Positions 3,288-23,296 of a stretch of 32,000 nt of DNA are shown piece after piece. Made by a program: the position numbers and the translations under genes. The notes beneath the pieces are model-generated. The model saw only the letters and a list, made by a program, of their open reading frames with translations, was not told the origin of the DNA and ran no database searches. Numbering within the stretch: the first letter of the stretch is position 1; every line of letters begins with the position of its first letter. Source of the DNA: Phyllobacterium brassicacearum (GTDB lineage Bacteria; Pseudomonadota; Alphaproteobacteria; Rhizobiales; Rhizobiaceae); assembly GCF_003010955.1 (NCBI RefSeq), contig NZ_PGGO01000033.1, positions 1 through 32,000 of the forward strand. The letters run 5' to 3'.

Positions 3288-3301
3288 TTGCGCTGGCGCA
3301 A
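3288..3301. promoter_or_regulatory. FNR/NnrR-type box TTGCG-CTGG-CGCAA (perfect palindromic half-sites)
   Basis: Read directly from the 113-nt divergent cobO/ubiD intergenic region. The centre is 72 nt from the cobO ATG and 41.5 nt from the ubiD-like ATG. Confidence 0.6.
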
Positions 3302-3335
3302 AGACGTACTGATTTTATTGCGGCAAACAGCTTCG

Positions 3336-4847
3336 ATGAAACACTCCGTACCTCCAGCGTCCCGCTACGCCAGCCTTCAGGAATTCGCCAACGAACTGGA
3401 AAGGCGAGGACGTTTGAAGCGGATCGCGCATCCCGTTTTTTTGCAGCACGAGATCACGGAAATTCATCGGCGGGTAATGGAGGCAGAAGGTCCAGCACTA
3501 CTTTTCGAAAGGCCGATGGATAACAGTGGGAGGGTGCATGATATGCCGCTTCTCGCCAACGTTTTCGGCACGAAGGAGAGAATCGAATGGGGTTTCGGAC
3601 TCGAGTCCGGAGGCTTGCCAAATCTGGCGGAAACGCTATGCAACTTGCGTGATCCCCAGCCGCCAAAAAACGGAAAAGACGTCTGGGACAAACTTCCATT
3701 GCTGAAAGCGGCGCTTGCCATGCGCCCGAAGCAGGTTCGTCGTGCTCCTTGTCAGGAGATCGTCTGGCGCGGCGCAGACGCGGACCTGACACGCCTCCCG
3801 ATTCAAGGGTGCTGGCCCGGCGAACCGGCTCCTCTCATCACGTGGCCACTAGTGATCACGCGGTCGCCCGAAGACCCCAATGACGTCAATGTTGGGATTT
3901 ACCGTATGCAGGTACTGGGGCCGCAGCAGCTCATCATGCGTTGGCTCGCCCATCGAGGAGGCGCAAGACACCATCTCATGTGGCAACGGCTTGGGAAAGA
4001 CATGCCTGTTGCCGTCGTCATCGGGAGCGATCCTGCGACGTTGCTGGCGGCGGTCATGCCGCTGCCGGAGGGCATGAGCGAACTCAACTTCGCCGGCGTG
4101 CTGAGGGGCAAACGATCTGAAATCACCGAGGCAGTTTCAGTGCCCATGCACGTTCCGGCCAATGCCGAAATCGTGCTTGAAGGGCATGTATCGGCAACAA
4201 AGACAGCCGAGGAGGGGCCTTACGGTGACCACACGGGTTACTACAATTCAGTGGAGGCGTTTCCGGTGATGGCGCTTTCTGCCATCAGCAAGCGGCGCGA
4301 TGCCATCTACCTGTCGACATATACCGGACGCCCTCCCGACGAGCCCTCCAAGCTGGGCGAGGCGATGAACGAATTGTTTGTGCCCCTCGTCAAACGTCAG
4401 CTTCCGGAGATCGCGGACTTGTGGCTGCCCTCGGAGGCGTGTTCCTACCGGGCTATGGTCGTTTCAATCGACAAGCGCTATCCCGGACAAGCCCGCCGCA
4501 TCATGATGGCGTTATGGTCGCTGCTGCCGCAGTTCACATACACGAAACTTATCATCGCCGTGGATCCGGACATCAATGTCCGAAGCTGGCCGGACGTCGT
4601 GTGGGCGCTATCCACCCGTTTTGACGCTAGCCGCGACCTTATGGTGGTTTCGGACACGCCGATCGATTACCTGGATTTCGCATCACCGAAAGCAGGGCTT
4701 GGTGGCAAGTTGGGCCTTGATGCCACAACGAAGATAGGACCTGAAACGGAGAGGGAGTGGGGCAAGGTTCTTGGGATGTCTCCCGAGATTACCGATCGGG
4801 TCGACGCCATGTGGGCAGAGCTCGGGCTTGGAGGAGAAAGCCAATGA
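3336..4847 (+). CDS. UbiD-family (prenyl-FMN dependent) decarboxylase, 503 aa
   Basis: The N-terminus LQEFANELERRGRLKRI...EITEIHRRV...GPALLFERP and the central EGPYGDHTGYY are characteristic of UbiD. The ATG at 3336 is used because the track start at 3288 is a TTG lying inside the regulatory box. Confidence 0.85.
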   Translation: MKHSVPPASRYASLQEFANELERRGRLKRIAHPVFLQHEITEIHRRVMEAEGPALLFERPMDNSGRVHDMPLLANVFGTKERIEWGFGLESGGLPNLAETLCNLRDPQPPKNGKDVWDKLPLLKAALAMRPKQVRRAPCQEIVWRGADADLTRLPIQGCWPGEPAPLITWPLVITRSPEDPNDVNVGIYRMQVLGPQQLIMRWLAHRGGARHHLMWQRLGKDMPVAVVIGSDPATLLAAVMPLPEGMSELNFAGVLRGKRSEITEAVSVPMHVPANAEIVLEGHVSATKTAEEGPYGDHTGYYNSVEAFPVMALSAISKRRDAIYLSTYTGRPPDEPSKLGEAMNELFVPLVKRQLPEIADLWLPSEACSYRAMVVSIDKRYPGQARRIMMALWSLLPQFTYTKLIIAVDPDINVRSWPDVVWALSTRFDASRDLMVVSDTPIDYLDFASPKAGLGGKLGLDATTKIGPETEREWGKVLGMSPEITDRVDAMWAELGLGGESQ

Positions 4848-5422
4848 CACCTCATCATGTTGTGGTCGCGGCCACAGGAGCTTCTGGTGCTGCAATACCA
4901 TTGAGAATCTTGGAACGCCTCGCCACGACCACTGCGGTAGAGACACATCTGGTTGTTTCCGACGCTGCACGGCGGACGTTTCAGTACGAGGTTGGGCAGG
5001 ATGCGGTTGAGCGGGCCGTTTCTTTGGCGTCACGCAGTTACCTGATCAGTGACGTCGGCGCAGCTATCGCAAGCGGCTCATTTCCGACCTCTGGCATGAT
5101 TGTCGCCCCGTGCTCGATGCGGACGTTGGCAGGGATCGCCGCGGGCCTGTCGGACAATCTGATTACGCGAGCGGCAGATGTTCACCTCAAGGAGCGCCGT
5201 CGATTGGTCCTCATGACGCGGGAAACACCCTTACACCTCGGTCATCTGCGTAATATGTGTGCTGTCACCGAAATGGGTGCCGTCATTATGCCGCCCGTAC
5301 CCGCCTTCTACAATTTGCCGCAAACGGTGGCGGAGATTGTTGACCATTTTGCTGCACGGGCGATCGATCTGTTGAACCTTCCCATCGCGCGCCAATCCGC
5401 TGTCTGGCACGGTCAGTTGTGA
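4844..5422 (+). CDS. ubiX: UbiX-type flavin prenyltransferase, 192 aa
   Basis: VVAATGASGA Rossmann-like start, APCSMRTLAGIA, and LKERRRLVLMTRETPL motifs. The ATG at 4844 overlaps the ubiD-like stop (ATGA). Confidence 0.9.
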   Translation: MTPHHVVVAATGASGAAIPLRILERLATTTAVETHLVVSDAARRTFQYEVGQDAVERAVSLASRSYLISDVGAAIASGSFPTSGMIVAPCSMRTLAGIAAGLSDNLITRAADVHLKERRRLVLMTRETPLHLGHLRNMCAVTEMGAVIMPPVPAFYNLPQTVAEIVDHFAARAIDLLNLPIARQSAVWHGQL

Positions 5423-6279: not shown

Positions 6280-6444
6280 TCAATCGAGATAAGATTCGGA
6301 AGGCCTGTCATCGTCATAGAGAATGCGCTCGGACGCGCCGTCCAAATCCTCGTATTGCCCGTTTTTGAGAGACCAAAGGAACAGCAGCAGACCTGCCAGA
6401 CCGAGCGCTAACGAAATAGGGATCAGGTAGAAGAAGTCTTTCAT
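6280..6444 (-). CDS. ccoS: cbb3 oxidase maturation protein FixS/CcoS, 54 aa (not in the ORF track)
   Basis: My own translation is MKDFFYLIPISLALGLAGLLLFLWSLKNGQYEDLDGASERILYDDDRPSESYLD*, a typical CcoS. Its ATG overlaps the fixI stop (ATGA at 6441-6444). Confidence 0.85.
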   Translation of the reverse strand: MKDFFYLIPISLALGLAGLLLFLWSLKNGQYEDLDGASERILYDDDRPSESYLD

Positions 6445-8702
6445 TCTGCCAATCGCCCCGACTGTATCTTTAGGCCCAAAGGCTTTGTCTTTCCCTGCAT
6501 TGGCTCACCCCTGAGCCTCAGCGCGTTGGCTACAACGACTATGGATGACAGTGACATCGCCAGCGCCGCGACAAAGGGAGTTGCATGACCAAGGATCGCG
6601 ACCGGAAGCGCCACGACGTTGTACCCGATGGCGATGACGAAGTTCTGCCGGATCAACTTGCCGGCATCCCGGGAAACCCGGTAGGCGAGAAACACCGTGT
6701 CGAGACTGTCTTGTAGAAAGACGAAGTCGGCATTGTTGCGGCCGACATCAGCAGCGCTGGCGGGGGCCATCGAAACGTGCGCAGCCATGAGAGCGGGCGC
6801 GTCGTTCAAGCCGTCACCAACCATCAGGACCTTGCGGCCCTGGTCGGACAGCACTTTGATGCGCTCAAGTTTGCCACCGGGAAGGATGCAGGCAGTGTAC
6901 TCGGAAATGCCGAGTTCGAGGGCGATTTCCCTCACGGCAGATACGCTGTCCCCCGAAACAATCTCCATAGAAATTCCGGCGCTGCGCAGTTTGTCAACGA
7001 GCGCTCTCGCCCCGGGGCGCAACTTGTCCGAAAATGCGAAGACGGCAACCTGGCGTCCGTCGCATGCAAGAACGGTGTCCGGTGATGGGTTTTCCGTCCC
7101 GCACGCGAACAGTGCGCGTCCCAGTCGATAAACCTTGCCTTGGGAAATGCCCTCCAGGCCGAGGCCGGGGTACTCTTTTACGTCGTCGAAGCGATACGAG
7201 TTTCCGGCACTTGTCCTTGCGGCTGCTGATATAGCCTGGGCATTCGGATGTCGGGAGTGCGATGCAAGTCCGGTGGCGATGGAAAGCGCATCCCGGTCGA
7301 TCAGATCAATATTGGTGACTTGCAACTGTCCCAGTGTGAGCGTGCCGGTCTTGTCGAAGACAACGGTGTCGATCTCGTTGAGCCGCTCCATGGCCGATCC
7401 ATCCTTGACCATAATCCGGCTTTCGAACAGACGGCGCGCGGCCACGACCTGCACCATCGGGACTGCGAGCCCGAGCGCACAGGGGCAGGTGATGATCAAA
7501 ACGGCAATGGCAATGGTTGCTGCCTGGTGAAAGTCCCCTTGCACGATCATCCAGCCGAGGAAGCTCAGCAGCGATGTCAGATGCACCGCCGGCGCGTAAA
7601 GACGGGATGCACGGTCGGCGATGCGTCGATAAACCGATTTGCCGGATTCGGCTGCTTCCATCAGCCGGATCGTTTCGGCGAGAAACGAGTCTTCGGCATT
7701 CGCTGTGGCGACGGAGGTCAACGATCCAGTGATATTGAGTGTCCCTGCCTGGAGGGCTACTCCCGATTCAACTTTGCGCGGGGCGCTTTCGCCTGTTACT
7801 AGCGAGAAATCGACGTCGGAAATCCCCTTGATGACCTCGCAGTCGACCGGAACGCGTTCGCCGGCGGTAAGCAGCAGGCGAGTCCCTGGCTTGATCTCTT
7901 TTAACGGTAGGTATTCGTATTCGCCGTCGGCTTTGATCGTCATCGCGCCGCGCGACGAAAGTTGCGCAAGGCCCTTGATCGCCGTCCGCGTGCGCTCCCG
8001 CATGACGTAGTCCAGCGTCCGTCCTATCAGAAGGAAAAACACCAGCGATGTGGCAGCATCGAAGTAGGCGTATTCGTAGCCGTGGTAACTGTCGTAGACG
8101 CTGAGGGCGAATGCCGCGGCGATGCCGATTGAAATTGGCACGTCCATGTTGGTTTGTCCGTGCTTGAGGGCACGCCACGCCGACTGATAAAATACGCGTC
8201 CGGAGTAGAGAAGCGTGGGGAGGGCAATGCCAGCGCAAATCCAGTGAAGGATGTCCCGCGTTGATCCTTCCGCGCCCGACCAGACCGAAACAGACAATGA
8301 CATTATGTTCATCGAGCCAAATGCGGCGACCGCCAGCGCCCTGAGCATCCTCGAAAGTTCACCGTTCGGTTTCGCTTCCTCGGTCGGGTCGAAGAGATGC
8401 CCATCAAAGCCGAGCTCTTTTAGAGCACCAATCGCGTCGGGAGGAGTTCCTCGGCCGGACCAACGCAATGCCAATCTTTTGCTCGAAAGATTGACCCGCA
8501 CGTATTGCACGCCCTCAAGCTTTGCCAGTCCGCGCTCAATTTTGTTGACGCAGCCGCCACAGTGGATCGAAGGCACCGAGATTTCCGTCTGCAAGATGCC
8601 GTCGCCTATGCTGCGGCTTGCCAGCCGGAATTCATCGGCCAGCGGACTTGAGGCCTGAACGGTATCGGTGGATACAATCATCGTTGCAGACGTGCAGGTC
8701 AT
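6441..8702 (-). CDS. ccoI: Copper-translocating P1B-type ATPase FixI/CcoI, 753 aa
   Basis: N-terminal HMA motif CGGC, TM CPC (ITCPCALG), DKTGTLT phosphorylation site and GDGLNDAP hinge. It lies between cbb3 genes and ccoS. Confidence 0.92.
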   Translation of the reverse strand: MTCTSATMIVSTDTVQASSPLADEFRLASRSIGDGILQTEISVPSIHCGGCVNKIERGLAKLEGVQYVRVNLSSKRLALRWSGRGTPPDAIGALKELGFDGHLFDPTEEAKPNGELSRMLRALAVAAFGSMNIMSLSVSVWSGAEGSTRDILHWICAGIALPTLLYSGRVFYQSAWRALKHGQTNMDVPISIGIAAAFALSVYDSYHGYEYAYFDAATSLVFFLLIGRTLDYVMRERTRTAIKGLAQLSSRGAMTIKADGEYEYLPLKEIKPGTRLLLTAGERVPVDCEVIKGISDVDFSLVTGESAPRKVESGVALQAGTLNITGSLTSVATANAEDSFLAETIRLMEAAESGKSVYRRIADRASRLYAPAVHLTSLLSFLGWMIVQGDFHQAATIAIAVLIITCPCALGLAVPMVQVVAARRLFESRIMVKDGSAMERLNEIDTVVFDKTGTLTLGQLQVTNIDLIDRDALSIATGLASHSRHPNAQAISAAARTSAGNSYRFDDVKEYPGLGLEGISQGKVYRLGRALFACGTENPSPDTVLACDGRQVAVFAFSDKLRPGARALVDKLRSAGISMEIVSGDSVSAVREIALELGISEYTACILPGGKLERIKVLSDQGRKVLMVGDGLNDAPALMAAHVSMAPASAADVGRNNADFVFLQDSLDTVFLAYRVSRDAGKLIRQNFVIAIGYNVVALPVAILGHATPFVAALAMSLSSIVVVANALRLRGEPMQGKTKPLGLKIQSGRLAE

Positions 8703-8706
8703 GTCG

Positions 8707-9495
8707 TTAATCCGGATCTCGCATGGTCAGGTAAGCATGCCAGGTGGCATGACCGAGCAGCGGGAAAATGATGACGAAGCCGATCATCCCCGAAAGCAAG
8801 GCCATGATGGTAAGACTGAGGACGATCACCCCCCACATCAGCATGACTGGCAGATTGTTCCAGACAATGGAGATGCTGGTTCCCATGGCGGTGAACGCGT
8901 CGAACTTCTTGTCCAGCACCATGGGGATCGAGAAGACGCTGATGGCAAAGGCGAAGGCCGCGAAAATCCCCCCGATTGCCACTCCGACCACAAGCATCGC
9001 TACCCCGATCGGCGTGCCGAACAGCATGGGGAGGATATGATCCATGCCCGGGAACGGCCGCCATCCAAAAAACAGCGCGTAGAGGAGCACTGCAGCCCGC
9101 ATCCACAGGAGCATCAGGCCCAACAGGACGGCCCCGACGAAAAGCACATGTTGGCTGGTACCGCGTTCCGGTATGAGCATTGACGCCAAGGTGACAGGCA
9201 AGCCTTTGGTCAATCGCTGGCTTTTGACGTAGAGGCCGGTTGCGAGCGCCGGGCCGACGACCAGAAAGCCGGCAAGTGCCGGGAAGAAGGCAAAATCCAG
9301 TGAATAGAACAGCAATCCGGCCGCGATCGCCATAGAGATTAAAGCAACTCCCGTGCCGTAGACCAGGCTGGGGAAGGGTACGGTCCACAGATCCCTCCAG
9401 CCTTCGACAAACCAGCCAAATGCCTGGTCCGCGGACACATGTCTGTTTCGGTCGATTGCCTTCGGAAGAGGCGGAACGGTCTCTGGAATTTTCAT
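8707..9495 (-). CDS. DUF2189-type integral membrane protein, 262 aa
   Basis: The N-terminal FGWFVEGWRDLW...SLVYG followed by 5-6 TM segments matches my recollection of DUF2189/COG5473. The ATG at 9495 has GGGAAAGG upstream. The stop is 4 nt before the fixI start. Confidence 0.7.
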   Translation of the reverse strand: MKIPETVPPLPKAIDRNRHVSADQAFGWFVEGWRDLWTVPFPSLVYGTGVALISMAIAAGLLFYSLDFAFFPALAGFLVVGPALATGLYVKSQRLTKGLPVTLASMLIPERGTSQHVLFVGAVLLGLMLLWMRAAVLLYALFFGWRPFPGMDHILPMLFGTPIGVAMLVVGVAIGGIFAAFAFAISVFSIPMVLDKKFDAFTAMGTSISIVWNNLPVMLMWGVIVLSLTIMALLSGMIGFVIIFPLLGHATWHAYLTMRDPD

Positions 9496-9541
9496 GGGAT
9501 GCCTTTCCCTATCTGGGCTGAAGAACCGAAACGCGCTTCTT

Positions 9542-9730
9542 TCAACATGAGGAGTTCGCCGCGCGATATGTCCCGGGCTGATGGCTCGCATCTTTCATGT
9601 GTCCGACGCAATCCGGCTGCGAGAGAAATGCCACATACACCAGGTGGGCGTTGGCGAGGACAACCACCGCCGCTGCCGACGCCACCACCAACGCCACAAG
9701 GAACCTTGGCCTGGAAATCAATTCACTCAT
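9542..9730 (-). CDS. 62-aa single-TM protein with a Cys/His-rich C-terminal tail (unknown family)
   Basis: The ATG overlaps the ccoP stop (ATGA at 9727-9730) and a perfect AGGAGG sits 6 nt upstream. One N-terminal TM helix is followed by QPDCVGHMKDASHQPGTYRAANSSC. Confidence 0.65.
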   Translation of the reverse strand: MSELISRPRFLVALVVASAAAVVVLANAHLVYVAFLSQPDCVGHMKDASHQPGTYRAANSSC

Positions 9731-10635
9731 GATCCGCCTCCTGCCGCCGCTGTCGTGCCGCCCTCTTTTCTCAGATCAAGAACATAGAGCGTGATGATCT
9801 TGATGTCGGCGGGTGTGAGCCGCGCACCCCAGCTCGGCATATGGCCTTGACGGCCGTGGAAGATGCTCTCGTAAATATCCTTCCGCTCCCCACCGTAGAT
9901 CCAGTAGTCGTCGGTGAGATTCGGAGCGCCGACCTCGACCAGCCCCTTGGCGTCGTCGCCGTGACAGGCTACGCACGTTGTAGCGAAGAGTTCTTTGCCC
10001 TTCGCAACATCTTCTTTGTTTGTGTCGGTGACCGTGGCCGGTCCGGACAGTGATTTGACGAAGCCGGCCAGAAGCGAAACCTGATCCTGCGTCAACGTCC
10101 CGTCACGGCCAAAGGCAAGCATTTGCGATACGCGGGTGTTCGGATCGGTGCCGTTGATGCCCGCCGTCACAGTTTGTAGGACGGTCTCCGGATCGTTGCC
10201 CCAAAGCATCGGCGACTGAACAATATTGGGAAAGCCCTTGTTGCCCTTTGCGTTGGCTCCGTGACAGGCCGCGCAATTGTCCCCGAAAAGCGTGAGACCG
10301 TTTTCACGGACCGTGCGCATCAAGTCAGGATCCGACTGGATCTGCGTCAGATCTTCCTTTTCGATACGGGCCATCCAGCCTGCACGCTCTCGCGCAGCGT
10401 CGGCAACGGACTTGGCGACGACCTCCTTTTGATCGACACCGAGCAGGCCTTTGAAGTATCCTGATCCGTATGGCCAGCTCGGCATGAGCAATGTCCAGGC
10501 CAAGGCGAAAATCCCCAGCGTGATCAGGAAGAAATAGACGGGCTTGGGAACTGGCGTGTTGAGCTCCTTGATGCCGTTCCATTCATGCCCCGTCGTTTGG
10601 TGACCAGTGAAAGGATCGCGCTCGCCTACTGACAT
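9727..10635 (-). CDS. ccoP: cbb3-type cytochrome c oxidase subunit P (dihaem c), 302 aa
   Basis: N-terminal HEWNGIKELN motif, one TM, and two CxxCH sites (CAACH, CVACH). Confidence 0.93.
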   Translation of the reverse strand: MSVGERDPFTGHQTTGHEWNGIKELNTPVPKPVYFFLITLGIFALAWTLLMPSWPYGSGYFKGLLGVDQKEVVAKSVADAARERAGWMARIEKEDLTQIQSDPDLMRTVRENGLTLFGDNCAACHGANAKGNKGFPNIVQSPMLWGNDPETVLQTVTAGINGTDPNTRVSQMLAFGRDGTLTQDQVSLLAGFVKSLSGPATVTDTNKEDVAKGKELFATTCVACHGDDAKGLVEVGAPNLTDDYWIYGGERKDIYESIFHGRQGHMPSWGARLTPADIKIITLYVLDLRKEGGTTAAAGGGS

Positions 10636-10799
10636 GGCCTGTCCTCTTCATCGGACACCACTGCGGCAGCCGCCTGTGCAAATTGCTCCTTGTTCGATGG
10701 CCAGTACGCGTAGACCAACACGCCGATCGACATGGCGATCAGGTAGAACAGGCCGAAAGACTTGGAGAAACCCGTGAGCATTTCATGATCGATTGTCAT
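10626..10799 (-). CDS. ccoQ: cbb3-type oxidase subunit Q, 57 aa (not in the ORF track)
   Basis: My own translation is MTIDHEMLTGFSKSFGLFYLIAMSIGVLVYAYWPSNKEQFAQAAAAVVSDEEDRPCQ*. It has one TM, starts 1 nt after the ccoO stop and overlaps the ccoP start by 10 nt. Confidence 0.75.
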   Translation of the reverse strand: MTIDHEMLTGFSKSFGLFYLIAMSIGVLVYAYWPSNKEQFAQAAAAVVSDEEDRPCQ

Positions 10800-10800
10800 G

Positions 10801-11532
10801 TCACTCCACCTCGTTCTGTGTTGATTGATGGGCGGCGTCGGTCAGGTGGCCGAGGATTTGCAGATAAGCAACGAGCGCATCCATCTCAGTGACCGCGCCT
10901 TGATTGCCGTCAAACAGGCTGACATCGGTCTTGTCGCCATATCGGGTGGTCACGCCCGCAGCCAGATCAGTATCGGGATTTGCCTGACCGATGGCGTCGC
11001 TTGATGCGTTCGAAACCATCTCATCGGTATAGGGCACACCCACCGCTCGTAGCGCCGCCAAGTGTTCGCCGAGATCGCCAGTCTTGAGCTGTTTGCTCGA
11101 CAACCAGCGATAGGCGGGCATGTTGGATTCGGCAACAACATCTCGCGGGTTGGTGAGGTGCGCGACATGCCAGTCATTCGAGTACTTTCCGCCGACCCGG
11201 GCAAGATCGGGTCCGGTCCTCTTGGAGCCCCAGAGCATCGGGTGGTCGTATTTCGACTCCACTGCCAGGGAATAGGGGCCGTACCGTTCCACCTCGTCCC
11301 GCAACGTGCGGATCATCTGGGAATGGCAGGCATAGCAGCCCTCTCGCATGTAGATGTTGCGTCCTGCGACCTCGAGCGGCGTGTAGACCCGCATGTCCGG
11401 CGCTTTTTCCACGGTCTCGTCGATCGTGAACAACGGAGCGATCTCGATTAGGCCGCCGATACTTGCTACACCGATGATTGCGAGGACAAAGCCGATCGCA
11501 CTTCGCTCAAGTCGGTAGTGTAAGTTGAACAT
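10801..11532 (-). CDS. ccoO: cbb3-type oxidase subunit O (monohaem c), 243 aa
   Basis: N-terminal TM, a CYACH haem site and a conserved GPDLARVGGKYS motif. Confidence 0.93.
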   Translation of the reverse strand: MFNLHYRLERSAIGFVLAIIGVASIGGLIEIAPLFTIDETVEKAPDMRVYTPLEVAGRNIYMREGCYACHSQMIRTLRDEVERYGPYSLAVESKYDHPMLWGSKRTGPDLARVGGKYSNDWHVAHLTNPRDVVAESNMPAYRWLSSKQLKTGDLGEHLAALRAVGVPYTDEMVSNASSDAIGQANPDTDLAAGVTTRYGDKTDVSLFDGNQGAVTEMDALVAYLQILGHLTDAAHQSTQNEVE

Positions 11533-11535
11533 TGT

Positions 11536-13194
11536 CTATTCTCCGGCTTGTGCGGTTAGTGTGGCCGGCTGCAAGGCCATCGGGATGTCCGAGGCGGATT
11601 CGGCCGCGACCGGCACCGGGATTCGGATGGTCATCCAGATGTTGTAGAGGGCAAGGACAGCGCCAGCCAGGAACAGTAGGCCACCGAACGCACGGGCGAT
11701 GTAATAGGGATGCATGGCGACAAGCGAATCAACGAAGGAATAGTTCAAGGTCCCGCTATCGTTGTATGTCCGCCACATCAGCCCCTGGATAACCCCTGAG
11801 TTCCACATGGCGAAGACGTAGACGACCGTTCCAGAGAGGGCGAGCCAGAAGTGCCACTCAACCAGTTTGGGGGAGTAAAGGGCCGGACGTTTCCACAGCC
11901 ACGGTGTCAGCGCGTAGAGCGAACCGTAGGTAATCATGGCAACCCAGCCAAGCGCGCCGGCATGGACATGGCCGACGGTCCAGTCGGTATAATGCGACAG
12001 CGAGTTGACGGCGCGGATCGCCATGAAGGATCCTTCAAAGGTGGAGAGTCCATAAAAGATTGCTGCCAGCATCATGAAACGCAGGACCGCATCATCGCGG
12101 ACCTTGTGCCAGGCCCCGTTGAGCGTCAGCAGAGCATTTCCGGCAGATGCCCAGGACGGAACCAGCAACACCACCGAGAACGCCATGCCGAGCGTCTGAA
12201 CCCAGTGAGGAAGCGCCGTATAGTGAAGGTGATGCGAGCCTGCCCACATGTACATGAAGGTGATGCCCCAGAAACTGATGATCGACGTTCTGTAGGAATA
12301 GATCGGACGACCCGCGCGTTTCGGCAGGTAATAATACATCATGCCGAGGAAGCCGGCGGTCAGGAAGAAGGCCACCGCATTGTGGCCGTACCACCATTGC
12401 GTCATCGCATCCTGAACGCCCGAGAACAGCGAATAGCTCTTGGCGTGTCCGAGTGAAACGGGGACAGCAAGGTTGTTGACGATGTGCAGGAGAGCGACAA
12501 CCAGGATGAAGGCCATGTAGTACCAGTTGGCGACATAAATGTGCGGTTCCTTGCGACGCATCAGCGTACGGATATAGATCGAAAAATAGACGACCCAGAC
12601 GATGACCAACCAGATATCGGCATACCATTCAGGTTCGGCATATTCCTTGGATTGGCTAACACCCATGAGGTAGCCGCTGGCCGCCAGGACACAGAACAGA
12701 TTGTAGCCGAAAAGGACAAACCACGGACTGAATTGATCCGGCAGGCGAGCACGAGTCGTTCGTTGCAGGACATGCAGCGACGTGGCGATCAGGGCGTTAC
12801 CGCCGAATCCGAAGATGACGCCGCTGGTATGCACAGGACGAAGTCGACCGAAGCTTGCCCATTCTGCGTCAACCGTCAGCTCCGGCCAGGCGAGGAGGGC
12901 GGCGACCCAAACGCCAACGAGCATGCCGACAACGCCCCATATTAAAGTCAGGACAATGCCGACCTTGCTGGGATCGTCATAATATTCGGACAATCGGGCG
13001 GGAGAGGGCTCCGGTGCACCATAGGCACGCAGAAGCGCTATGACACCAGCCACGGCGCTCAGTGCAATGATCCAGCCATGCGTGCCGATGAGATCGCCGC
13101 GACCGGCAGCGGCCATCGCCACTCCGAAGCAAATCAAGATGAGGAAGGTGAAGGCCGCAACGATGCGCTCGGTGCCGGTCAATTGTGAAATCAT
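11536..13194 (-). CDS. ccoN: cbb3-type oxidase catalytic subunit N, 552 aa (alternative GTG start at 13254)
   Basis: Haem-copper oxidase motifs WWYGHNAV, GSHHLHY and HVHAGALGW. ATG at 13194. A GTG at 13254 overlaps the stop of the upstream small ORF (GTGA), so the start is uncertain. Confidence 0.93.
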   Translation of the reverse strand: MISQLTGTERIVAAFTFLILICFGVAMAAAGRGDLIGTHGWIIALSAVAGVIALLRAYGAPEPSPARLSEYYDDPSKVGIVLTLIWGVVGMLVGVWVAALLAWPELTVDAEWASFGRLRPVHTSGVIFGFGGNALIATSLHVLQRTTRARLPDQFSPWFVLFGYNLFCVLAASGYLMGVSQSKEYAEPEWYADIWLVIVWVVYFSIYIRTLMRRKEPHIYVANWYYMAFILVVALLHIVNNLAVPVSLGHAKSYSLFSGVQDAMTQWWYGHNAVAFFLTAGFLGMMYYYLPKRAGRPIYSYRTSIISFWGITFMYMWAGSHHLHYTALPHWVQTLGMAFSVVLLVPSWASAGNALLTLNGAWHKVRDDAVLRFMMLAAIFYGLSTFEGSFMAIRAVNSLSHYTDWTVGHVHAGALGWVAMITYGSLYALTPWLWKRPALYSPKLVEWHFWLALSGTVVYVFAMWNSGVIQGLMWRTYNDSGTLNYSFVDSLVAMHPYYIARAFGGLLFLAGAVLALYNIWMTIRIPVPVAAESASDIPMALQPATLTAQAGE

Positions 13195-13250
13195 TTTGGT
13201 TGCCCCCGCCTTAATGAATTGCCAGTGCCTCTGACCATGAACATTTCGAC

Positions 13251-13406
13251 TCACTGATTGAGAAAAAGCACGGCCGCGATTGCGACCGAAAAGACCACGG
13301 CCGTCATCGCGCCGGCACGCTGCAAAACGTCCATGCGGTTGAGAACGACCGCAAAGACGATGATTATTGGCGTGGCGACGATCAGTCCGATCTGTGCGTC
13401 GGTCAT
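13251..13406 (-). CDS. 51-aa predicted two-TM small membrane protein preceding ccoN (unknown family)
   Basis: ATG at 13406 with ACGGAG 7 nt upstream. The sequence is MTDAQIGLIVATPIIIVFAVVLNRMDVLQRAGAMTAVVFSVAIAAVLFLNQ. It lies between the FNR box and ccoN. The longer track ORF begins inside the box. Confidence 0.45.
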   Translation of the reverse strand: MTDAQIGLIVATPIIIVFAVVLNRMDVLQRAGAMTAVVFSVAIAAVLFLNQ

Positions 13407-20770: not shown

Positions 20771-21061
20771 ATGGTAGATACAGCCACCGAAAAGGAACAC
20801 GTCCTGGATGTGCGCACGCTTGCGCCCCACGTGCGTCACTCCACTATTTTCACACTCATCGACGCGCTGCCCATGGGAGCATCGCTCACCATCATCAGCG
20901 ACCATCCTCCACGTCCGCTGCACTATCAGCTTGAAACGAAGTTTCCCGGGCAGTTCTCGTGGGATTATCTCGAAGAGGGTCCAGAGGAGTGGCGCGTTTC
21001 AATTGGAAGACTCACCGCCGCCGCCGTCGACACACATGAATGCACCTGCGGCGGACACTAA
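20771..21061 (+). CDS. DUF2249 domain protein with a Cys/His C-terminal tail, 96 aa
   Basis: LDVRTLAPHVRHSTIFTLIDALPMGASLTIISDHPPRPLHYQL...WDYLEEGPEEWRVSIGR matches the DUF2249 pattern as I recall it. The tail is THECTCGGH. Confidence 0.75.
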   Translation: MVDTATEKEHVLDVRTLAPHVRHSTIFTLIDALPMGASLTIISDHPPRPLHYQLETKFPGQFSWDYLEEGPEEWRVSIGRLTAAAVDTHECTCGGH

Positions 21062-21092
21062 CCTGCGGACATTCTGACCGGAGATTGATATT

Positions 21093-22439
21093 ATGCCCGG
21101 AGCGGCGCTGTCCCGCTGGACCATGACCTACTTTGCTGCTGCACTCTTGTTCCTCATTCTTGGAGAGACAATGATGGTTGCGGGCTACGGGTTTCCTTCA
21201 GCGCCGCTCAGGGCACCCGAAACCTTGATGCTTGTCCACATCGTCGCCATTGGCTGGTTGACTTTGCTCATGCTGGGAGCGCTTTTGCAATTTGTGCCTG
21301 TGTTGGTGGGACGATCACTTCGTGCGCAGCGTTTGGCATTGCCGGCACTGCTGCTGATCCTCGTCGGACTTCTGTGTCTGGAGGCAGGTTTTGCCGCTCT
21401 TGCCGGTATGGTCCCGCTCTACACCTCTGATCTGGCTGCGGGAGCGGCCGCCCTGGTTCTGGGCGTTGCGATGGCAGTGATGATCATCGGTCTGACGCTT
21501 TGGCAAGCACGGCCTTTAACGGCGCCGGCCCGTTTTGTTGCAATCGGCATAGGATGCCTCGTGGTCACCGCGATGCTTGGAGGAGCGTTCGCTCTTGAAC
21601 TGTCCGGAATTGCAGAAAACGAAATCTTCTCTCGGCTCGATCTGAACGGATTGTCGATCCACGCCGTCCTCGGTCTTGGTGGTTGGATGAGTTTTACCGC
21701 AATCGGAGTCAGCTATCGCCTGCTGATGATGTTCATGTTGTCACCGGACAGCGCCGCACGCGTTGACCGCGCAGTGTTGTGGATCGGTGCGGGTGCTTTG
21801 ATGCTCGTCGCTGCGGGAGTCCCGTTCATCATTGCGTTTGCGGCACCCTTGACCGCAAGCCTGACGATTGCGGGGATACTTGGCGTTGTGGTTGTCGGGC
21901 TCTATGTAAGCGACGTTGTCCGCATCTACCGTAAGCGTGTGCGCAAAACAGTCGAACTCAACAGCTCGGCCAGTGTGGGTGCCTACGGTGCACTGGTTGC
22001 TTCTGCAGCGCTCCTGGCCATCGTTTATTTTGACCATGGCGATTACGCAGCGGCCGCGTTGACATACGCTTTCGTCTTTGGCTGGTTGACCGGGTTGGGA
22101 CTTGCCCAGCTCTACAAGATCATTCCCTTTCTCACCTGGCTTGAGTGCTATGGGCCCGTCCTGGGAAAATCACCCACACCGCGTGTGCAGGACCTGGTTC
22201 GGGAGAAGGGTGCAAGCGTCTGGTTTGTGATCTACTATGCAAGCGTTGCTGCGGGGACAATCTGCATTCTTTCGGCACAGGCAAACCTCTTCCGCGGCAC
22301 TTGTCTCGTCCAGCTCTTGGCCACGCTCGTTATCGTCGCACAATACGTGAGGGCCCGCTGCCTTGCCGACGTGGCACCTGCACTGCAATTGCCCCACGGG
22401 GCGCGGCGACCGAACCTGTTCTTGTCACGTTCGTCATGA
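21093..22439 (+). CDS. Uncharacterised polytopic membrane protein (about 12 TM), 448 aa
   Basis: About 12 hydrophobic segments. Two similar His-containing TM motifs are present (LVHIVAIGW...GALLQFVP and SIHAVLGLGGW...). It starts 31 nt after the previous gene, and I recognise no named family. Confidence 0.75.
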   Translation: MPGAALSRWTMTYFAAALLFLILGETMMVAGYGFPSAPLRAPETLMLVHIVAIGWLTLLMLGALLQFVPVLVGRSLRAQRLALPALLLILVGLLCLEAGFAALAGMVPLYTSDLAAGAAALVLGVAMAVMIIGLTLWQARPLTAPARFVAIGIGCLVVTAMLGGAFALELSGIAENEIFSRLDLNGLSIHAVLGLGGWMSFTAIGVSYRLLMMFMLSPDSAARVDRAVLWIGAGALMLVAAGVPFIIAFAAPLTASLTIAGILGVVVVGLYVSDVVRIYRKRVRKTVELNSSASVGAYGALVASAALLAIVYFDHGDYAAAALTYAFVFGWLTGLGLAQLYKIIPFLTWLECYGPVLGKSPTPRVQDLVREKGASVWFVIYYASVAAGTICILSAQANLFRGTCLVQLLATLVIVAQYVRARCLADVAPALQLPHGARRPNLFLSRSS

Positions 22440-22449
22440 GGAGACGCAA

Positions 22450-22983
22450 ATGAACCAACAGTCCCATGAACTCGATGTCCGTCCGATCCTGCGGAGCGGC
22501 GGGGAACCCTTCCAGGCGATCATGAAGGCCGTGGCGGACCTGAAGCCCGGTCAGGGATTGAGGCTCCTCGCCACCTTCCGCCCGGAGCCGCTCTTCCGCG
22601 TGATGGAGGGACGTGGGTTTACCAGCGTGGCCCGTGAAATCGACGGCGGAGACTGGGAGGTCCTGTTCACGCCCAGGGTTGCCGCCGAACCTCCCGTCGA
22701 CGTGTCGACAAACGCGGAGATGCCGCAGCTCTGGCCCGATCCAGACACCAGTCTGGACCTCACAGATCTCGATCCACCGGAACCGATGGTTCGGATCCTG
22801 GCCGCCACAGAACAGATGGAGCCGGGTAGGGTTCTCTTCGCACTGTTGTCCCGGGAGCCGCTGTTTCTTTTTCCCGAGTTGACCCGTCGGCATCATCAGT
22901 GGGTCGGGAGTTTCGACGATACCGGAGAAGCCTATCGAATCCTCATCCGCATTGGTACAAGGACGGAAAACAACAATGGATGA
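22450..22983 (+). CDS. Tandem DUF2249 domain protein, 177 aa
   Basis: Two DUF2249-like halves (LDVRPILRSGGEPFQAIMKAV...DWEVLF and LDLTDLDPPEPMVRILAAT...AYRILIR). A strong GAGGAG sits 7 nt upstream of the ATG at 22450. The track ORF start at 22363 lies inside the upstream gene. Confidence 0.75.
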   Translation: MNQQSHELDVRPILRSGGEPFQAIMKAVADLKPGQGLRLLATFRPEPLFRVMEGRGFTSVAREIDGGDWEVLFTPRVAAEPPVDVSTNAEMPQLWPDPDTSLDLTDLDPPEPMVRILAATEQMEPGRVLFALLSREPLFLFPELTRRHHQWVGSFDDTGEAYRILIRIGTRTENNNG

Positions 22984-23296
22984 AGCCGGGATTGCATCGC
23001 TTCGATCCTCGGTGCGGGAATCGCTGAAGATCATACTCGATCCCGAACTTGGCGAAAACATCGTCGACCTTGGGTTGATCTATGGGCTTGACGTGGCTGC
23101 CAATGGAAATGTTCGTGTCACAATGACAACTACCACGAAGGCATGCCCGGCAACGGGTTTCCTTCAGGAGGCAGTGAAGTTACACATCTCCGGAGTGCCA
23201 GGTGTGAGTGCTGTACAAGTCGATCTTACATACGAGCCACAATGGTCGCCCAAATTGATCATGGGCGAGGCGCGTACTTTTTTTACAAGTCGATGA
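22976..23296 (+). CDS. DUF59 / SufT-like metal-sulfur cluster assembly family protein, 106 aa
   Basis: ILDPELGENIVDLGLIY...VRVTMTTTTKACPATG...VQVDLTYEPQWSP is the classic DUF59 (MIP18/PaaD-like) pattern, including the conserved Cys. The ATG at 22976 overlaps the preceding gene by 8 nt. Confidence 0.8.
   Translation: MDEAGIASLRSSVRESLKIILDPELGENIVDLGLIYGLDVAANGNVRVTMTTTTKACPATGFLQEAVKLHISGVPGVSAVQVDLTYEPQWSPKLIMGEARTFFTSR

Follow-up and report, generated by a model that had tools for sequence, protein, structure and literature searches.

In the canonical arrangement, the structural genes of a cbb3-type cytochrome oxidase, ccoNOQP, are followed by ccoGHIS, with ccoG and ccoH (fixG and fixH) between ccoP and ccoI. 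Work on the canonical cluster has led to CcoH, CcoI, and CcoS being described as essential for the formation of the oxidase, and CcoG as a dedicated cupric reductase with two [4Fe-4S] clusters (PMC7558416). SenC, a transmembrane (TM)-anchored protein with a CxxxC motif and a His, has been proposed to carry copper from CcoI to the oxidase (PMC8475189). According to a preprint citing Pawlik et al. 2010, the TM helix of Rhodobacter capsulatus CcoH contacts TM helix 9 of CcoN as well as CcoP, and the protein reportedly stays in the complex (bioRxiv 10.1101/2020.06.27.175620). Here, we analyzed a stretch of 32,000 nucleotides from Phyllobacterium brassicacearum (contig NZ_PGGO01000033.1, hereafter the window) carrying a cbb3 operon that does not follow the canonical arrangement: the slot of ccoG and ccoH is taken by a small open reading frame (ORF) encoding a 62-amino-acid (aa) protein and by a gene encoding a membrane protein of the DUF2189 family.

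Gene calls and junctions were read from the window sequence, and family labels were taken from Pfam and NCBIfam. The order on the minus strand is ccoN-O-Q-P, small ORF, DUF2189 gene, fixI (ccoI), and ccoS (fixS). The stop codon of ccoP and the start codon of the small ORF share an ATGA (9730..9727), and an AGGAGG (9742..9737) is located exactly 6 nt 5' of the small-ORF ATG. The small-ORF stop is separated by 46 nt from the DUF2189 start, the spacing between the DUF2189 gene and fixI is 4 nt, and another ATGA overlap joins fixI and ccoS, so that the gene order and all the junctions described in an earlier note on this DNA match the sequence. The products of ccoP, ccoQ, the ATPase gene, and ccoS scored above the Pfam/NCBIfam cutoffs, while ccoN and ccoO were assigned through homology to annotated genes; a cbb3 operon with ccoN, ccoO, ccoQ, ccoP, a CopA2/FixI-type ATPase gene, and ccoS in one direction is thus present. 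CU102_26190 and CU102_26185 of P. brassicacearum match the small protein and the DUF2189 protein, respectively, with 100% identity.

The earlier note had also stated that no CcoG or CcoH is encoded in the window, and this was borne out: blastp and tblastn searches of the 32 kb with three CcoG and three FixH queries detected neither protein (best E 0.03), the matches with E of at least 0.03 falling inside other genes. The arrangement was then followed in other genomes. A scan of one genome per species yielded at least 594 loci matching two DUF2189 motifs, with the best match in P. chamaecytisi (88%), and the linkage counts given below concern the best 80 of these at least 594 loci, all from Alphaproteobacteria or from unclassified Proteobacteria metagenome-assembled genomes. 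Within 10 kb on either side of the pair, CcoG was found in 0/80 loci and FixH in 0/80. The lack of ccoG in such a cluster does not prove that the genome lacks it, since orphan ccoG genes are found at a distance from any ccoNOQP: one, in Azospirillum brasilense (L112, 7155-8651), has an NnrU gene about 6 kb away, and another, in Pannonibacter (L113, 7143-8642), adjoins NnrS and is preceded by a DUF2249 gene.

The small ORF adjoined the DUF2189 gene in all 80 loci (with one convergent and one overlapping call), and ccoP was located directly upstream of the pair in 75 of the 76 evaluable loci. The recurrence and the linkage to cco genes anticipated in the earlier note were therefore both found. 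The tie to fixI and ccoS holds only in part: the two genes follow the pair in 47 of 69 evaluable loci, seven others have a downstream ccoS only, nine have neither gene adjacent, and in six, two of which also have fixI there, ccoS lies upstream of ccoN. Overall, 22 of the 69 loci have no adjacent fixI downstream of the pair, making this tie looser than that to ccoNOQP, and the pair remains behind ccoP where fixI or ccoS is missing or relocated. Because ccoP is nearly always present and downstream fixI is often lacking, the invariant partner of the pair is the oxidase operon and not the ATPase. The pair is a genuine, conserved, and co-inherited module, strictly paired and strictly tied to ccoNOQP.

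The order ccoNOQP, small ORF, DUF2189 gene was also observed in Rhizobium sp. TH2 pTH2b and Tardibacter pHSL4, on Shinella, Bosea, and Jiella plasmids, in Devosia ginsengisoli, and on Kaistia and marine contigs; a search with the small ORF matched eight further sphingomonad plasmids, at the level of sequence match and not of gene order. The fixNOQP3-fixI2-fixS2 cluster of Sinorhizobium meliloti pSymA has the same layout as the window, with a 63-aa homolog of the small protein and a DUF2189 protein (SM2011_a0620) encoded between fixP3 and fixI2. It differs in that S. meliloti has three fixNOQP copies in all, and in that canonical fixGHIS is carried by the same plasmid. A recent pSymA record lists the 63-aa homolog as hypothetical (L022, 7679-7870), and in CP004138 (S. 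meliloti 2011; used in PMC10117765), the small ORF is unannotated and falls in the gap 330111-330330 between SM2011_a0617 (fixP3) and SM2011_a0620, the latter being labelled "hypothetical protein". In the ribosome profiling data of S. meliloti 2011, the DUF2189 gene, fixI2, and fixS2 have non-zero entries in the expression columns of supplementary table 2 (PMC10117765), and for FixI2 a link to the metallation of the oxidase has been described (Patel et al. 2014, as cited in PMC5552934).

A second cluster of P. brassicacearum, found on contigs of other assemblies (6324-13209 on SNYE01000009.1 of GCA_004362695.1), likewise consists of ccoNOQP, a 62-aa ORF, a DUF2189 gene, fixI, and ccoS, and is located beside kdpFABCD. 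Its DUF2189 protein (P0026), which is 81% identical to that of the window, has the NCBI name CU102_15070 of P. brassicacearum, so that, of the two cbb3 clusters found for this species, neither is canonical. The suggestion of the earlier note that the pair could be specific to an extra oxidase copy was thus not sustained: the same layout is found in the second cluster, and the pair marks a whole clade of CcoN, CcoO, and CcoP proteins.

This clade was apparent in neighbour-joining trees comparing module-type loci, that is, loci carrying the pair, with five or six ccoGH-linked oxidases, including Sinorhizobium, Mesorhizobium, and Sphingobium copies. Module-type CcoN, CcoO, and CcoP were each monophyletic with respect to their ccoGH-linked counterparts, even when both types came from the same genera, and S. 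meliloti pSymA carries both. The CcoN of the window is 70-91% identical to module-type and 54-60% identical to canonical sequences, and the corresponding values for CcoP, the most diverged subunit, are 46-81% and 32-38%. In contrast, FixI sequences did not split into module and canonical clades. These simple trees, with few canonical sequences, suggest that the module marks its own clade of alphaproteobacterial cbb3 oxidases. The pair and CcoN, CcoO, and CcoP show clade-specific co-evolution. Module-type CcoN proteins have an invariant N185 and C188 in predicted TM helix 3 (numbering of the 572-aa ORF starting at GTG), whereas the canonical residues are Q and I, and further clade-specific positions were noted at 229, 245, 313, 466, and 485, together with an N-terminal T-x-x-E-R at 26-30.

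The small ORF is far more than a chance ORF, since it is conserved across 365 representative clusters at E ≤ 1e-3 (213 at E ≤ 1e-10) in a profile search of 1.84 billion representative proteins; a word-indexed search had returned 17 homologs of 55-71 aa with E ≤ 8e-6. Conservation of the ORF, on which the proposal of the earlier note depended, is thereby established, and in most annotated examples its start overlaps or abuts the ccoP stop. The 150 best matches listed are 44-112 aa long, and the median for the family is 70 aa. Column conservation, computed over 150 representatives, was highest for N27 (.99), H29 (.99), P39 (.99), C41 (.99), H44 (.98), A57-A58 (.99), and C62 (1.00), and the conserved core reads A-N-x-H-[LF]-V-Y-V-A-x-x-S-Q-P-x-C-V-x-H-x-[KR] ... 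[FY]-x-A-A-x-[SP]-x-C. The C-terminal Cys is the last residue in 110 of the 150 members. The earlier note had counted two Cys, two His, and one Met as potential ligands in the tail; C41, H44, and C62 are its only conserved ligand-like residues, and M45 and H50 are not conserved. A 61-aa hypothetical protein encoded after ccoP in R. etli was considered as a member and rejected, as it is unrelated to the family.

The N-terminus of the small protein is variable and rich in Arg, and a hydrophobic helix comes next. In an AlphaFold2 (AF2) model of the protein alone, residues 7-36 form a helix with a predicted local distance difference test (pLDDT) score above 90, and the pLDDT of the tail is below 50. 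The hydrophobic stretch and the modelled helix both support a single TM helix, as the earlier note had proposed, and N27 and H29 would be invariant polar residues inside it. The small protein matched no Pfam or NCBIfam family, and no relative was found among Protein Data Bank (PDB) sequences in a profile search with the family.

The DUF2189 protein matched PF09955 with 111.9 bits (cutoff 26.2, E 2.9e-32) over profile positions 2-126 of 126. NCBIfam NF041043 (BPSS1780 family membrane protein) gave 24.3 bits, below its cutoff of 90, and is a distant relative only. Among 8000 scored candidates, 3610 relatives were found at E ≤ 1e-3. An alignment of 120 sequences of the close subfamily contained 40 invariant columns, including W28, G32, W33, D35, Y89, K91, S92, W131, R133, P191, D199, M204, N214, W221, and P245-L-G-H249-x-x-W252-H253. 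The AF2 model (pLDDT 89.3, predicted template modelling score 0.84) is all-helical with about six membrane helices, and the charge distribution suggests that both termini are cytoplasmic. Foldseek gave no significant match in the PDB, and none was found by profile search of PDB sequences. DUF2189 proteins have no conserved Cys (median 0 Cys per protein), and hhalign detected no similarity to CcoG or FixH, so that DUF2189 cannot be a CcoG-type reductase. A longer reading of the gene (8707-9591, ATG at 9591), encoding 294 aa, overlaps the small ORF in another frame; this start is used in some database entries (P0019 and P0020, both 294 aa), is probably a wrong call, and would mask the small gene.

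More distant DUF2189 relatives (30-37% identity) keep a C-terminal LGHA[TS]WH.Y motif; the small protein accompanies only the cbb3-linked subfamily. The distant genes examined in detail were located at L114 1251-2093, L117 5716-6579, and L118 6160-6798. Among five plasmid examples, the DUF2189 gene adjoins aa3-type oxidase genes in two (Phyllobacterium sp. T1293 and Azospirillum) and is located directly upstream of ccoNOQP in one, Ruegeria pomeroyi. The R. pomeroyi protein has Tyr in place of the first His of the motif; no small Cys/His ORF accompanies its gene, and an Rrf2 regulator and a truncated haemoglobin are encoded nearby. The Paracoccus and Pseudoalteromonas genes are located elsewhere. 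On metagenome contigs carrying a distant subfamily, A-type oxidase genes were found within 6 kb in 5/35 evaluable cases and cbb3 genes in 0/35. The association of DUF2189 with heme-copper oxidases is thus recurrent but not general, and the occurrence of distant DUF2189 genes beside both aa3 and cbb3 genes suggests that the target is subunit I, which these oxidases share.

The small protein was compared with several described proteins. Like CcoH/FixH, it is encoded directly 3' of ccoNOQP and 5' of ccoI-ccoS and would be anchored by one TM helix near its N-terminus, behind an Arg-rich stretch in the cytoplasm; the segments of the two that span and adjoin the membrane can also be aligned, if weakly, in one register (N...A..S....V). 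However, it stops 26 residues past the helix and is therefore without the roughly 100-residue periplasmic domain of FixH, the T-G-x-H motif that stands ahead of the FixH helix is missing, and FixH has none of its invariant Cys and His. The small protein of the window did not match Pfam FixH (PF05751) at E ≤ 0.1, and 2 of the 17 family members reached E 0.014, which is below threshold. When the small family was aligned with hhalign to three FixH sequences, E was 0.097; with six, P was 0.0029 (probability 10.7%, 32 columns), and a single-TM control pair scored higher. In control alignments with the CcoQ and CcoS families, the small family gave P 0.07-0.09, whereas CcoQ against CcoS gave P 2.5e-6 (probability 89%, 40 columns), and because of this last control, we regard hhalign scores as unreliable for single-TM proteins. 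The CcoQ-CcoS score itself may reflect an unexpected relationship or be an artefact of single-TM composition or of the family collection.

As for CcoG/FixG, DUF2189 shares its slot between ccoP and ccoI and is likewise polytopic in the membrane, but it lacks the two [4Fe-4S] Cys motifs (CxxCxxCxxxCP) and the periplasmic Ig-like domain. Alignment with eight CcoG sequences by hhalign revealed no similarity for either DUF2189 (P 0.31) or the small family (P 0.079). We considered whether either protein could be a diverged CcoG or FixH and rejected this possibility, as no similarity was found. With the copper chaperones SenC/Sco, which serves cbb3 oxidases and CuA, and Cox11, which serves CuB of aa3 oxidases, the small protein would share a single TM anchor of N-in/C-out orientation followed by membrane-near periplasmic Cys (and His) ligands, and it shares with them the genetic association with an oxidase and a copper ATPase. 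Its 26-residue tail is nevertheless too short for a thioredoxin fold or the Cox11 beta-domain, and its motif is C-x2-H...C-COOH instead of CxxxC plus His (Sco) or CFCF (Cox11); neither a Pfam or NCBIfam match nor the periplasmic, thioredoxin-like domain bearing CxxxC and a distal His that defines Sco/SenC was found in it, and it showed no similarity to these chaperones in sequence or fold. CcoQ is also a short single-TM protein encoded with or near ccoNOP, but the operon already has its own ccoQ, and hhalign gave no alignment of the small family with CcoQ. CcoM of Pseudomonas stutzeri is likewise a short single-TM extra cbb3 subunit, and the small protein may be comparable to it.

Taken as a whole, these data lead us to favour, with moderate confidence, a reading in which the 62-aa and DUF2189 proteins are oxidase-specific assembly factors or tightly bound accessory subunits of a distinct cbb3 lineage, and the pair probably does not act mainly on the FixI copper pump. 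The small protein, made in step with CcoP through translational coupling, would insert in an N-in/C-out orientation, and its TM helix would dock on CcoN/CcoP in the manner of the N-terminal anchor of R. capsulatus CcoH. The clade-specific intramembrane Cys and Asn of CcoN could pair with N27 and H29, which would lie in the outer half of this helix. The C41-x2-H44...C62 site would be presented on the periplasmic side near the membrane and may either bind Cu(I) for the CuB centre or form a disulfide-stapled loop; copper handling by this tail, which we purely infer, is plausible. DUF2189 would be the obligate membrane partner of the small protein, with six TM helices and a conserved polar cluster, intramembrane and cytoplasm-facing, formed by R133, D199, N214, H249, and H253. 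Physical interaction, topology, metal binding, and a requirement for oxidase activity are all predictions of this reading.

A more specific version is tentative and, in our opinion, doubtful. It supposes that the pair is a previously unrecognised system that builds the heme-CuB centre of C-type oxidases without CcoG or CcoH, with the small protein as a minimal membrane-tethered CuB chaperone and CcoH substitute (an analogue of Cox11) and DUF2189 as a subunit-I assembly factor that would also serve some aa3-type oxidases.

Several points weigh against the main reading that we favour. For both proteins, topology was deduced only from the charge distribution and predicted helices, and the tail that would carry the Cys/His site is predicted to be disordered in the AF2 model of the small protein alone. 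The weak similarity of its anchor to that of FixH, which would speak for this reading, is statistically insecure and should be taken as a lead and not as a result. Thirty of the 35 contigs of the other DUF2189 subfamily have no neighbouring oxidase genes, and we found no functional work on the small protein or on DUF2189 in the literature. Finally, S. meliloti has canonical fixGHIS on the same replicon as the pair (pSymA), and the canonical factors could thus serve both oxidases, in which case the pair might act otherwise.

A rival reading, raised in the earlier note, is a copper relay centred on FixI, in which the tail would take Cu(I) from FixI in the manner of a minimal SenC/Sco or Cox11, DUF2189 would feed or receive copper, and the pair would replace CcoG and the periplasmic chaperone steps. 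We consider this rather unlikely. The invariant C-x2-H...C ligand set would suit a relay, and so would the invariant H249-x3-H253 of DUF2189 in its last TM helix, together with M204; however, no metal-binding fold was detectable in either protein, and DUF2189 has neither a conserved Cys nor similarity to CcoG. Similarly, fixI-ccoS directly follows the DUF2189 gene in the majority of the evaluable loci (47/69), with only 4 nt between them in the window, but the pair is kept behind ccoP in the 22 loci without an adjacent downstream fixI, FixI does not show the split into module and canonical sequences seen for CcoN, CcoO, and CcoP, and the distant DUF2189 genes lie beside oxidase structural genes and not beside ATPase genes. 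It should be added, in favour of a relay, that the primary periplasmic acceptor of the copper exported by CcoI is not fully settled in the canonical system (PMC8475189).

The genomic setting of the window, which holds nnrU, norE-like, norB, norQ, norD, nnrS, nirK, nirV, nnrR, pseudoazurin, and napC genes, could suggest instead that the pair adapts this oxidase lineage to nitric oxide (NO) exposure, through protection, sensing, or repair, and not through assembly. Related loci also adjoin genes for Rrf2-type regulators, NnrS/NnrU, hmpA, and truncated haemoglobin. We nevertheless regard an NO-related role as improbable: NnrS is encoded within 10 kb of the pair in 14 of the 80 loci and is lacking there in the other 66, the second P. 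brassicacearum cluster adjoins kdp genes, the S. meliloti copy is found among unrelated genes, and the invariant neighbour of the pair is ccoP and no NO gene. Last, the Arg-rich and hydrophobic segment of the small protein could serve as a signal peptide, and cleavage after A-N-A would then set free a periplasmic Cys/His peptide of 34 residues, a possibility that seems very unlikely to us. A26-N27-A28 does resemble an AxA signal-peptidase site, yet about 18% of the representatives have Val or Ile at position -1, N27 and H29, which flank the putative site, are about 99% invariant, the hydrophobic run goes on for seven more residues, and AF2 predicts one continuous helix through this region. A weak match to a twin-arginine translocation signal (TIGR02811, E 0.024, 14.9 bits against a cutoff of 48) and an S/T-R-R-x-[LF] sequence in some homologs point in the direction of secretion, but the twin-arginine motif is not conserved, and the window has R-P-R.

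In a large alphaproteobacterial cbb3 lineage, the position of ccoG and ccoH is held by a strict pair of membrane proteins that are both uncharacterised, and the family of one of them has been named in neither Pfam nor NCBIfam. Should assembly depend on the pair, it would represent an alternative route to build or equip a high-affinity terminal oxidase, and this would be the first function assigned to DUF2189. S. meliloti, which has the same arrangement, offers a genetic model in which this can be tested directly. The lineage is often found in denitrification and NO-stress islands and on conjugative plasmids, and may for that reason be of importance to microaerobic and denitrifying lifestyles.

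The features of the cbb3 cluster and the candidate regulatory boxes of the window are listed in Table 1.

Table 1. Positions of the cbb3 cluster genes, the small-ORF ribosome-binding site, and candidate regulatory boxes in the window.
Feature	Position	Strand	Basis and remarks
ccoN	11536-13194	-	Probable ATG at 13194, giving 552 aa; the listed ORF reaches a GTG at 13254
ccoO	10801-11532	-	ORF; matches FixO-annotated genes of related loci
ccoQ	10626-10799	-	Pfam FixQ, 53.6 bits
ccoP (cbb3 subunit III)	9727-10635	-	TIGR00782, 275 bits; Pfam FixP_N and two cytochrome c domains
Small ORF, 62 aa, MSELISRPRFLVALVVASAAAVVVLANAHLVYVAFLSQPDCVGHMKDASHQPGTYRAANSSC	9542-9730	-	ORF; no Pfam/NCBIfam family
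AGGAGG ribosome-binding site	9737-9742	-	Inside the ccoP 3' end; read from the sequence
DUF2189 gene, 262 aa	8707-9495	-	ATG at 9495; PF09955, 111.9 bits
fixI/ccoI, Cu-translocating P1B-type ATPase	6441-8702	-	TIGR01511, 518.7 bits; Pfam HMA, E1-E2_ATPase, Hydrolase
ccoS/fixS	6280-6444	-	TIGR00847, 81 bits; Pfam FixS, 72 bits
Candidate FNR/FixK/NnrR-type box, TTGATCCAGGTCAA	13456-13469	.	One mismatch to TTGAT-N4-ATCAA; consensus match
Candidate FNR/FixK/NnrR-type box, TTGATCCAGATCAA	25442-25455		Between nnrS and nirK; perfect match
Candidate FNR/FixK/NnrR-type box, TTGAGACAAATCAA	6178-6191		Upstream of nnrU; pattern search

The ATG start proposed for ccoN fits the length of its homologs (547-552 aa). 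A 51-aa ORF predicted to encode two helices (13251-13406, minus strand) lies directly 5' of ccoN; it is conserved in no related locus, is thus probably not a gene, and was rejected. The candidate FNR/FixK/NnrR-type box in this region lies about 260 nt 5' of the ccoN start codon, where ccoN and the norE-like gene diverge. A search for such boxes with up to two mismatches returned 28 matches in the window, where 12.5 were expected.

The window as a whole is a denitrification and NO-response island. It begins with acs, cobO, ubiD, ubiX, and nnrU, and the cco cluster is followed by the norE-like gene, norB, norQ, norD, and a gene for a HemN-like radical-SAM protein; a DUF2249/TusA/FeS-assembly set with a 448-aa membrane ORF, nnrS, nirK, and nirV come next, and then genes for an NnrR-like Crp regulator, a methyltransferase, and pseudoazurin, followed by tatA and napC. 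The set located 5' of nnrS (20771-23296) is composed of genes encoding a DUF2249 protein (20771-21061), the 448-aa multi-TM protein, which has no Pfam family (21093-22439), a DUF2249 plus TusA protein (22363-22983), and an FeS_assembly_P protein (22952-23296). This set also adjoins nnrS in Devosia and, in part, in Shinella and Jiella. Between cobO and nnrU, the ubiD-ubiX pair (3288-5422) encodes a UbiD protein of 519 aa and a flavin prenyltransferase of 221 aa. The corresponding neighbourhood in Devosia contains a UbiX-like gene, an SCP2 gene, and two U32 peptidase genes, a set that presumably resembles the O2-independent ubiquinone pathway.

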